Shown: positions 1-26,241 of the stretch, in pieces
Position numbering within the stretch: position 1 is the stretch's first letter
How the letters are laid out: every line of letters begins with the position of its first letter
Assembly (NCBI GenBank): GCA_041687695.1
Contig: JAWLBL010000049.1
Span: 1-28,243, forward strand
From: Myxococcota bacterium
GTDB taxonomy: Bacteria > Myxococcota_A > UBA9042 > PHBI01 > JAWLBL01
Direction: 5' to 3'
DNA: 28,243 bases
Translations under genes and position numbers: made by a program
Notes under the pieces: model-generated
What the model was told of the DNA's origin: nothing
The model's input: the letters and a program-made list of their open reading frames with translations, nothing else
Database searches by the model: none

Positions 1-97
1 GTGCGGTTTCCCACACTGACCACAGCTCCGACGACGACTAGGCGTAGGTCCCCTTCGAACGGAACTCCGGCTCATACACCACTTGACAGGACGCTAC
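1..97 (+). mobile_element. Probable right end of an insertion sequence (IS256-like terminal inverted repeat); transposase outside window
   Basis: TACACCACTTGACAGGACGCTAC (75-97) resembles IS256-family termini as recalled. The upstream CGGTTTCCCACACTGACCACAGCTCCGACGACGAC resembles non-coding sequence often seen near IS right ends. No transposase is visible. Confidence 0.4.
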
Positions 98-155
98 TTC
101 CTCGTGGAAAGGAGGCCGCATGATGCCCAAGGCCACTGCGATGGGGAAGGCTTCG

Positions 156-193
156 AAAACGACGAGGGCGCGACCTCGTCGAGGTCACGCCCT
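156..193 (-). terminator. Intrinsic terminator hairpin
   Basis: Minus strand AGGGCGUGACCUC-GAC-GAGGUCGCGCCCU (13 bp, with one U-G pair that works only on this strand), followed by CGUCGUUUU. Confidence 0.65.
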
Positions 194-298
194 GTTCGGG
201 TGAAGGGTGGGTCGCGCGCGTTCTGGGGGGGTCGGTCCCAGTGGTAGTGTTTCCGCCAAGGTTTGTCTCGGGGGGCGGACGCGTCTCACGACCCGCCC
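156..298 (-). ncRNA. Putative sigma-54-dependent small RNA (~140 nt)
   Basis: Bounded by a consensus -24/-12 promoter (predicted TSS ~296) and a terminator hairpin. The 5' stem-loop GGGCGG-GUC(GUGA)GAC-GCGU-CCGCCC starts at the predicted TSS. The unit has no ATG and no SD. Confidence 0.55.
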
Positions 299-306
299 GG
301 CAACTA

Positions 307-322
307 AGCAAGAGGCGTGCCA
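307..322 (-). promoter_or_regulatory. Sigma-54 (RpoN) -24/-12 promoter
   Basis: Minus strand TGGCACG-CCTC-TTGCT is an exact match to the TGGCACG-N4-TTGCW consensus and is intergenic. Confidence 0.8.
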
Positions 323-400: not shown

Positions 401-453
401 GTCAGGCCTGAGGCCAATCGGCCTCGGTGGGGTCTAGTGGCCGCAGTCCGGGG

Positions 454-1896
454 TCAGTAGGGCAGCGGGTCGCCTTCCTGCCAACGCTCGAAGACGACAT
501 ACACCTGGTCGGGGGCGACCGGGCGCACGATGAGGAAACGACGCGCCCGGGCGAGCGTCGTCTCGCGTTCGCTGTCGAGGACCGGGGCCCAGGTCCCCAG
601 GTTGTAGTAGCGGCCGCCGCCGGCCAGGGGGCGCCGCTCGGGGCGGTGGCTGTGGCCGAAGGCGACCACCGGGACCCGCAGGTGGCCGGCGATCTGCTCG
701 GCGACCAGGCCCCAGCGGCCGCGCTCCTGCAGCGCCAGGCTGCCGCGGCCCATCGCGCGCAGGACGAAGGTCAGCGCCGGCAACAGGGTCAGCAGCAGCA
801 GCCCCTGCGTCCAGGTGCGCGCGGCGATGACGCCGACCGTCAGGATGAGCGCGCCCAGCACCGCGATCAGGAAGCGGTCCAGCCACAGCTCGTGCAGCAG
901 GTGGCGGAAGCGGTCGGCGATGGGGCTCGAGCTCAGGCGCTCGAGGACGCCGATGAAGCCGGCGTCGACGCCCTTGGCCTGCCCGTAGGCGCGGTAGCGG
1001 GCCTGGCGCTCGGCCTCGGAGCCGCGGGCGCGGCGGCGCATCGCGCGCACGTCGAGGAGGGCACGCACGGAGGCGGCCATGAAGGGTCGGAACAGCGGGC
1101 GGCGCGGCCAGTAGAACTTGACGAAGTGCCGCATGTAGCCGCCGAGCGACATGATGAAGCTCTCGTCGTTATAGGGGTTGAAGGTCCCCAGGCGGCTGAG
1201 CGTGTAGCGCGCCATGACCGACCCGAACGAGCTCTCGATCTCGGCCGGCCGGCGGCGCGACGGCGGCAGCACGGGCGACAGCACGTCGCGGTAGCTGCAG
1301 GTCGTGTCGTACTGCTGGCCGTGCTCGGCGTAGAGCACGCCCGGCACGTACAGGAACCAGGGCTCGACGCTGACGGCGGCGGCGACCTGCTCGCCCGTGC
1401 CGATGGGCGCGCGCGCGGCCAGGGCCTGCCGCAGGACCTCCTGCACCTCGGGGAAGGTCAGCTCGCGGTCGTGGTTGCCCATGACGAAGGTGGCGCGGTT
1501 GCCGCGGCCCAGGAACCAGGCCAGCGTATCGAAGAACAGCGGGTGGTCCTCGATGATGCGGCGCATCTTGTAGACGCTGCCTTCGGACGAGGGCGGCAGC
1601 CCGATGGGGGGCGCCTCGACGCCCGGCGGCGCCGAGAAGACGGCGTCGAAGTCGAAGGTGTCGCCGTTGAAGACGATCTCGGTGCGGGAAAAGCGCGCGG
1701 GGCGCCGGCGCTCGAGCGAGCGCAGCAGGCCGGCGAGCGCCTCGTCCTGGATGGCGTCGACGGCCTTGTACTCCCACCAGCCGGGCGCGGGGGGGCGGAT
1801 CACCTCGGTCAGATGCACGTCGCTGACCAGCGCGTACTCGGTGCGTCCATCCGAATGCGGGACATGGATACTGACGGGGCCGGCCCCTGGCCTCAT
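454..1896 (-). CDS. Calcineurin-like metallophosphoesterase (LpxH-like) with an inserted transmembrane hairpin, ~480 aa
   Basis: Motifs SDVHL, GDTFD, GNHD, EHG, GHSH. Two hydrophobic segments precede GHSH. Start moved to ATG 1896 (GAGGAGG upstream) because the longer ORF overlaps the next gene. Confidence 0.88.
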   Translation of the reverse strand: MRPGAGPVSIHVPHSDGRTEYALVSDVHLTEVIRPPAPGWWEYKAVDAIQDEALAGLLRSLERRRPARFSRTEIVFNGDTFDFDAVFSAPPGVEAPPIGLPPSSEGSVYKMRRIIEDHPLFFDTLAWFLGRGNRATFVMGNHDRELTFPEVQEVLRQALAARAPIGTGEQVAAAVSVEPWFLYVPGVLYAEHGQQYDTTCSYRDVLSPVLPPSRRRPAEIESSFGSVMARYTLSRLGTFNPYNDESFIMSLGGYMRHFVKFYWPRRPLFRPFMAASVRALLDVRAMRRRARGSEAERQARYRAYGQAKGVDAGFIGVLERLSSSPIADRFRHLLHELWLDRFLIAVLGALILTVGVIAARTWTQGLLLLTLLPALTFVLRAMGRGSLALQERGRWGLVAEQIAGHLRVPVVAFGHSHRPERRPLAGGGRYYNLGTWAPVLDSERETTLARARRFLIVRPVAPDQVYVVFERWQEGDPLPY

Positions 1897-26164: not shown

Positions 26165-26241
26165 TGGTCGGGGTGGCAGGATTCGAACCTGCGACATCCA
26201 GCTCCCAAAGCTGGCGCGCTACCAGACTGCGCTACACCCCG
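26165..26241 (-). tRNA. tRNA-Pro (anticodon UGG)
   Basis: CGGGGTGTAGCGCAGTCTGGTAGCGCGCCAGCTT-TGG-GAGCTGGATGTCGCAGGTTCGAATCCTGCCACCCCGACCA: full cloverleaf, GTTCGAAT T-loop, encoded CCA, 77 nt. Confidence 0.98.

Follow-up and report, generated by a model that had tools for sequence, protein, structure and literature searches.

Near the start of the window, by which we mean the whole stretch of 28,243 nucleotides that was analysed (contig C49 of genome G000), we identified a predicted RNA gene of about 142 nt on the minus strand (155..296, both ends inferred), which we consider very likely to be real. Read in the direction of transcription, it is preceded by the gene of a metallophosphoesterase-like membrane protein (454..1896, minus strand), a putative enhancer of two tandem inverted repeats (409..445, minus strand) and a sigma-54 -24/-12 promoter (307..322, minus strand). 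It ends in an intrinsic-terminator-like hairpin with a U-rich tail (155..193, minus strand), recognised by terminator scoring and in homologues, and is followed, outside the RNA, by the end of an insertion sequence (98-1) with its 8-bp target duplication (106-99; together 1..106, minus strand). The upstream gene does not encode an activator and serves as a marker of the locus: an orthologue with 50-62% identity lies directly upstream of the RNA in 15 of 15 relatives, and homologues of the protein occur in 87 of 107 class genomes. The protein itself has only a weak Metallophos match (E 0.004, under the cut-off) and reaches no Pfam or NCBIfam cut-off. Comparison of the homologous loci shows the predicted enhancer, sigma-54 promoter, structured non-coding core and terminator to be one gene, and the conservation of all four lends good support to a putative stand-alone, sigma-54-transcribed non-coding RNA.

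The promoter had been proposed in a preliminary description of this DNA and was read directly as TGGCACG (322-316), CCTC and TTGCT (311-307) on the minus strand. It is kept in all 35 homologous loci, i.e. in 16/16 genome loci, where it lies 14-19 nt ahead of the core, and in 19/19 metagenome loci, though the motif was not part of the search pattern used there. Counting 12 nt from the -12 C puts the predicted +1 of the transcript at 296. The source genome encodes RpoN and 30 sigma-54 activator domains. Its 26 copies of the strict motif, as compared with 0, 1, 0, 0, 0 and 6 copies for six wrong spacers, indicate that the motif does not occur there by chance. By our own rough gene calls, a gene start lies at most 260 nt from 23 of these 26 motifs; the promoter of the RNA is among the three without one. 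The claim that the transcript is non-coding held up as well, as no start codon or reading frame is conserved among the 35 homologues: the cores of 14 contain no ATG, GTG or TTG, and the other frames range from 4 to 512 codons. A coding function was rejected on these grounds. A 149-nt stretch of the locus has a folding z-score of -4.46, with none of 200 shuffles equally stable. Among the sequencing runs listed as containing the sequence none was an RNA run; one, flagged as probably DNA, yielded a 151-nt contig spanning 204-295, which speaks neither for nor against transcription.

The RNA is single-copy and kept in 16 of 18 genomes of one order, a lineage known from metagenome assemblies and presumably PHBI01, which is listed as a Myxococcota order (excerpt of PMC11821767). 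Both misses are 67% complete genomes; in one (G007) the locus is broken across two contig ends, and in the other (G014) only a fragment of the upstream gene is found. Blastn against 40 relatives gave matches in 16 of 17 same-order genomes, within approximately 322-195, and same-order genomes carry promoter, core and terminator in the same succession. The covariance model, built from 16 same-order sequences, found a single copy in the source genome and in each of 16 genomes among the 107 of the class, all 16 belonging to this order, and matches in two of 151 phylum genomes, both of the same order. It found none in 89 class genomes of other orders, a count obtained with a narrow model and only 37 candidates scored per genome, which distant homologues could escape. 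On the strength of this count, blastn matches outside the order (G026, G036) were left uncounted. Where genomes of other orders have a homologue of the upstream gene, the surroundings (13 loci) contained neither a model match nor a sigma-54 motif. A two-block pattern run over 185,579 species genomes gave 16 matches, 15 of them true and one within a HAD gene. The metagenome pattern gave 21 matches, of which 19 score 85-108 bits with the covariance model and the other two lack the sigma-54 motif. Pattern matches L030, L059 and L077, with neither model match nor promoter, were dismissed as chance. Conservation spans six families, and the linkers carry indels; in all of these counts kinship makes the genomes non-independent. 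An Rfam 15 scan, one of the checks suggested in the preliminary description, found no known family at the RNA locus: at gathering score the window is without match except for a tRNA, and positions 1-600 gave two chance matches with E about 8. The RNA is not described, and its core motifs do not occur, in the literature searched, a scope outside which most subscription papers fall. It thus very probably represents a predicted small-RNA family that is absent from Rfam and conserved across one uncultured Myxococcota order.

The 25 distinct cores all fold alike, with a closing stem P1, inner hairpins P2 and P3, an A/C-rich linker, a pyrimidine tail and the terminator. P1 joins the 5' strand (279..294, minus strand) to the 3' strand (209..221, minus strand; paired as 221-209 in the fold of homologues) with a mean pair probability of 0.98 over 33 distinct homologues. 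The corresponding value for P2 (278-274 with 257-253; 253..278 including loop L2, minus strand) is 0.95; its 5/5 pairs are invariant in 25/25 sequences, and L2, in which an invariant CGAGA follows a C-run, has a mean unpaired probability of 0.82. P3 (241-237 with 227-223; 223..241, minus strand) with its C-rich loop L3 (236-228) is the most conserved block, invariant except for one C/U position, and L3 is 0.98 unpaired. The two loop regions are alike, each reading CCG, then a C-run, then AGA. The single-stranded pyrimidine-rich tail ahead of the terminator (198..208, minus strand) is moderately conserved (mean unpaired probability 0.69). Two structural details of the preliminary description were not upheld. 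In the full RNA the pairs of the GNRA-capped hairpin GUC-GUGA-GAC reach probabilities near 1e-7, and forming it costs 10 kcal/mol; of its three pairs, two are kept by no more than 7 of the 25 distinct homologues. The middle, described as largely single-stranded, consists of two hairpins within the closing stem, and what stays open is confined to the loops, the A/C linker and the 3' tail. A switch pairing the 5' strand with the second CGACCC, in L3, likewise found no support (probability about 0 in the full-length RNA); in a truncated RNA the same switch has a mean of 0.32 and is very variable. Strand-by-strand duplexes show that the inner half of P1 was rewritten on both strands in several lineages with pairing kept, but column covariation statistics provide modest support for the fold, with two-sided change in only two pairs and a score reached by 23/500 shuffles. 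In the alignment 94.4% of cells pair, and 15 of 22 pairs never vary, including P2, P3 and most of P1a.

The enhancer at 445-409, a feature absent from the preliminary description, has the consensus TG[GC]GG-N8-CCCCA, one base, CG[GA]GG-N8-CCYC (37 bp, inner spacing fixed). A profile built from these same loci matches in 32 of 35; of the remaining three, two are truncated and one retains a single palindrome in phase. The site in the window is the top-scoring one in the genome and lies 112 bp upstream. Among homologues, which as kin are not independent of one another, the distance from the enhancer to the -24 element is 102-184 bp, with values near 102, 113, 124, 137, 148, 160, 170 and 184, which corresponds to a period of approximately 11.5 bp (R 0.85 on 13 distinct distances, equalled by 0/5000 random sets; R 0.92, p 0.0002 on eight distance classes). 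Such helical phasing is expected if an activator bound at the enhancer contacts sigma-54 polymerase through a DNA loop; in supercoiled loops the helical repeat may be longer than 10.5 bp. The conservation and phasing of the tandem palindrome make its function as an enhancer likely.

The same enhancer site also precedes a second sigma-54 RNA, a GT4 glycosyltransferase gene, genes of extracellular contractile injection systems (eCIS) and the gene of an FHA-AAA-HTH sigma-54 activator. The activator gene (G000:C1:289656-291080) lies between dksA and groES and has a perfect single palindrome 66 bp upstream (gene with upstream region, G000:C1:289591-291080); among the 29 activator genes scored it is the only one with a perfect palindrome. 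With at most one mismatch, the palindrome occurs ahead of 16 of 30 orthologues of this gene versus two of 344 control windows, and it is absent upstream of 8/8 orthologues of family f3. These upstream sites suggest that the FHA activator is probably autoregulated, and the FHA-AAA-HTH protein is somewhat more likely than not to be the activator that acts at the enhancer of the RNA. We found no close orthologue in the order genomes G003, G004 and G007; G004, which is 94% complete, nevertheless has the enhancer. Its FHA domain would tie this regulation to Ser/Thr phosphorylation. Of two divergent GT4 glycosyltransferase genes (G000:C5:274105, L274), one likewise has the enhancer and a sigma-54 promoter ahead of it, and the GT4-linked enhancer site recurs in G007. 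Tandem palindromes linked to eCIS genes occur across the class and were located at G000:C11:63352, G000:C17:91040, L171, L172, L186, L192, L200, L202, L257-L262, L268, L270, L273 and L275. A gene with an eCIS_core domain lies behind a tandem palindrome in eight genomes, and a Pvc16-sheath-gp19 (tube) operon lies behind a palindrome in seven of the 20 regions examined for palindrome context, six of these seven outside the order; five of the 20 regions were left unassigned. The Pvc16 operon of the source genome has the site only at three mismatches. As a sigma-54 motif lies within about 320 bp of only two of 18 eCIS-linked sites, the activator may act otherwise there.

The second RNA is unannotated and lies between DsbA-like and carboxyl-transferase genes (G000:C17 about 41100-41240, minus strand; L218:1426-1608:-), with homologues in L212-L217, L219 and L271. 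It was found in eight order genomes by pattern and additionally in G003, and the exact pattern was found in 0/8 f3 genomes. Its enhancer stands at phased distances, six of them in the same phase as those of the first RNA (offset 0.0 bp), and it has a 5'-3' closing stem with compensatory changes around a different invariant core. It has no Rfam match, and the covariance model does not class it as a paralogue of the first RNA (best score 13 bits, none above 10 at the RNA itself). Several copies are without a clear terminator, and for this reason the second RNA may instead act as the leader of the carboxyl-transferase gene.

For the RNA of the window we propose the following mode of action. The activator, most likely the FHA-AAA-HTH protein, would bind the tandem palindromes 112 bp upstream and activate sigma-54 polymerase by DNA looping. 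The 5'-3' closing stem would stabilise the transcript and present two rigid C-rich loops. These loops, chiefly L3, may then begin pairing with short G-rich stretches of mRNA leaders without Hfq, as in sX13, which is the weakest step, and the RNA would thereby lower the translation of several targets as the repressing arm of a programme that includes the eCIS genes and the second RNA. L3, invariant and predicted to be unpaired, is proposed as the conserved accessible seed. Xanthomonas sX13, which is compared with C-rich-loop RNAs such as S. aureus RNAIII, represses via C-rich loops without Hfq and resembles our RNA in stable stems that display C-rich loops, a GC-rich host and Hfq-free activity (excerpt of PMC3771888). 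It differs in that the same excerpt describes no closing stem for it and reports G-rich targets, whereas none were found for our RNA; no sequence relation between the two was seen in Rfam scans. Hfq, CsrA, ProQ and Ro60 were not found in the source genome, which encodes one KhpA/B-type KH protein. Targets were sought by ranking the 5' regions of called genes in this genome. The best prediction (leuA leader, pairing with L2, -32.3 kcal/mol) was matched in 0/12 relatives, and a site at a dksA paralogue recurs in 1/12. The L3 complement is not enriched outside the RNA gene (48 occurrences in 18 genomes, as against 45 of the reversed control), and seven groups of regulon or neighbouring genes showed no seed enrichment, apart from one group of a single sequence. 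Of the earlier proposal of a trans-acting sRNA, the stand-alone gene is thus well supported, while pairing with G-rich Shine-Dalgarno sequences is plausible only, the four target tests being negative. We put the chances of a trans-acting, signal-induced, Hfq-independent sRNA that pairs through its C-rich loops at about even.

A protein-binding RNA, i.e. a titrator or scaffold whose invariant stems and loops form a surface by which a protein is sequestered or organised, is a less likely but serious alternative, kept in play by the invariance of the stems: with 15 of 22 pairs unchanging, conservation exceeds the needs of pairing. The negative target tests point in the same direction, although pairings of four or five G would be too short for such tests to catch. 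The resemblance of the two loop regions and the second RNA of the regulon, with the same closed build around a different invariant core, are also consistent with protein binding. Stable RNAs bound by proteins typically have a 5'-3' closing stem; in 6S RNA and the bacterial Y RNAs the two ends form a long stem that encloses inner loops. Our RNA shares this closed stem and differs from both in having no Rfam match; a canonical 6S RNA is encoded elsewhere in the genome, and no TROVE/Ro60 protein is present. Against protein binding stand this separate 6S RNA, the failure to find CsrA, Ro60, Hfq or ProQ in the genome and the fact that no RNA-binding protein was recognised among neighbouring genes. 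A CsrB/RsmY-type sponge was rejected, as no CsrA was found and both GGA triplets are located within or next to stems and not in repeated loops. Whether by pairing or by protein binding (involving none of Hfq, CsrA, ProQ and Ro60), the RNA and the second closed-stem RNA might be non-coding outputs, gained in this order, of an FHA activator with the older, class-wide job of controlling eCIS genes, timing or gating eCIS assembly or release post-transcriptionally; we regard this extension as speculative and rather doubtful. If true, eCIS control would include a layer of RNA regulation linked to phosphothreonine signalling.

The evidence from the downstream side bears on whether the RNA could instead act in cis as a leader (riboswitch or attenuator) controlling the HAD or lipoprotein gene that follows. 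The hairpin at 193-165 has 13 pairs, and its U-run begins 5 nt past the stem. It scores on the minus strand only, in agreement with the strand-specific terminator originally claimed; terminator-like sites occur at two per 700 nt compared to 0.3 in shuffles. A hairpin of -15 kcal/mol or lower, with freely variable sequence, is present in 31 of 33 homologues, and 21 of 33 have at least four U among the next 9 nt. Three findings would suit a leader: all 14 relatives whose sequence continues downstream have the next gene in the same orientation, the HAD gene of the source genome began about 65 nt beyond the terminator until the insertion separated them, and the hairpin is weak in two of 33 homologues. 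However, there is no competing antiterminator (opening the terminator costs a median of 22 kcal/mol, and less than 15 in only two of 33 homologues), the first downstream gene varies (lipoprotein in nine relatives, HAD phosphatase in four, an unrelated gene in one), and the RNA is intact in the source genome despite an insertion sequence that cut off these genes, now on contig C63. Such a leader is therefore improbable. The HAD domain of the downstream gene was recognised by domain search. Acidic Cys-rich predicted lipoproteins (L211:953-2311:+; after L026-L039) follow the RNA in 10 of 14 relatives, and this family has no Pfam or NCBIfam match. The insertion sequence, which is presumably IS256-like, landed beside the ribosome-binding site of the HAD gene. 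The same end is found on contigs C9, C37 and C60, and the matching duplication beyond the other end lies on C63 (1-110), by which C49 and C63 are joined; a second pair of insertion-sequence ends joins C9 and C39.

The stand-alone RNA gene fits these observations better than a conserved DNA element or promoter relic with no functional RNA, a very improbable reading to which the small number of covarying columns would lend itself. P1 variants keep their pairing via changes on both strands, the terminators hold a hairpin with unrelated sequence, and the promoter, the phase of the enhancer and the terminator have all been preserved in their succession.

The preliminary description had drawn an architectural analogy to Pxr (RF01812) of Myxococcus xanthus, which survives in part: sigma-54 control and C-rich loops are common to both, while the architecture and the activator, for which no response regulator adjoins here, are not. 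Pxr is likewise intergenic, with a sigma-54 promoter and an upstream enhancer region, and has a comparable length (108 nt vs about 140 nt here), an essential C in a hairpin loop and a 3' terminator-like stem (excerpts of PMC5684412 and PMC5568312); a C-to-A change in its loop 1 abolishes function (excerpt of PMC5684412). Pxr is also processed to a short form and blocks fruiting-body development. It is built of three separate stem-loops, SL1-SL3, in contrast to the closing stem, two inner hairpins and terminator of our RNA, and it lies behind the NtrC-like pxrR/nla19, whereas the RNA of the window lies behind the phosphoesterase-like gene and its candidate FHA activator is unlinked. The lineages also differ. 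In a direct cmscan of positions 1-600 the Pxr model gave no match at E up to 10. In the whole source genome its best score was 23.6 bits, elsewhere and far from the cut-off of 80, and no match was obtained in 151 phylum genomes, searches in which the positive controls were also unmatched. That our RNA is a highly diverged Pxr homologue, as the shared phylum, sigma-54 promoter, similar length and C-rich loop might suggest, is the least probable reading, given the lack of an RF01812 match at the locus, the different fold, the absence of a pxrR/pxrK-type neighbour and an origin of pxr placed within the Cystobacterineae (excerpt of PMC5684412).

Few regulatory RNAs have been characterised in Myxococcota, Pxr being the example found in the literature. 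The family described here is very probably a real new small-RNA family of a known kind, with a function inferred from sequence and an unusually complete and testable control region. As an order-wide family it comes with a named promoter, enhancer (37 bp) and candidate activator, from which activation could be rebuilt in vitro or in a laboratory host. In addition, the enhancer supplies a candidate motif to which a conserved sigma-54 activator of the FHA type may bind, and would tie this activator to eCIS operons across the class, which bears on how contractile injection systems are switched on. Opposite the terminator, the plus strand carries a purine-rich, Shine-Dalgarno-like stretch and a 27-codon antisense ORF (107-203), which crosses both the junction of the insertion and the variable terminator and is probably a chance occurrence. 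Towards the other end of the window, a tRNA gene is located at 26168-26241 on the minus strand.
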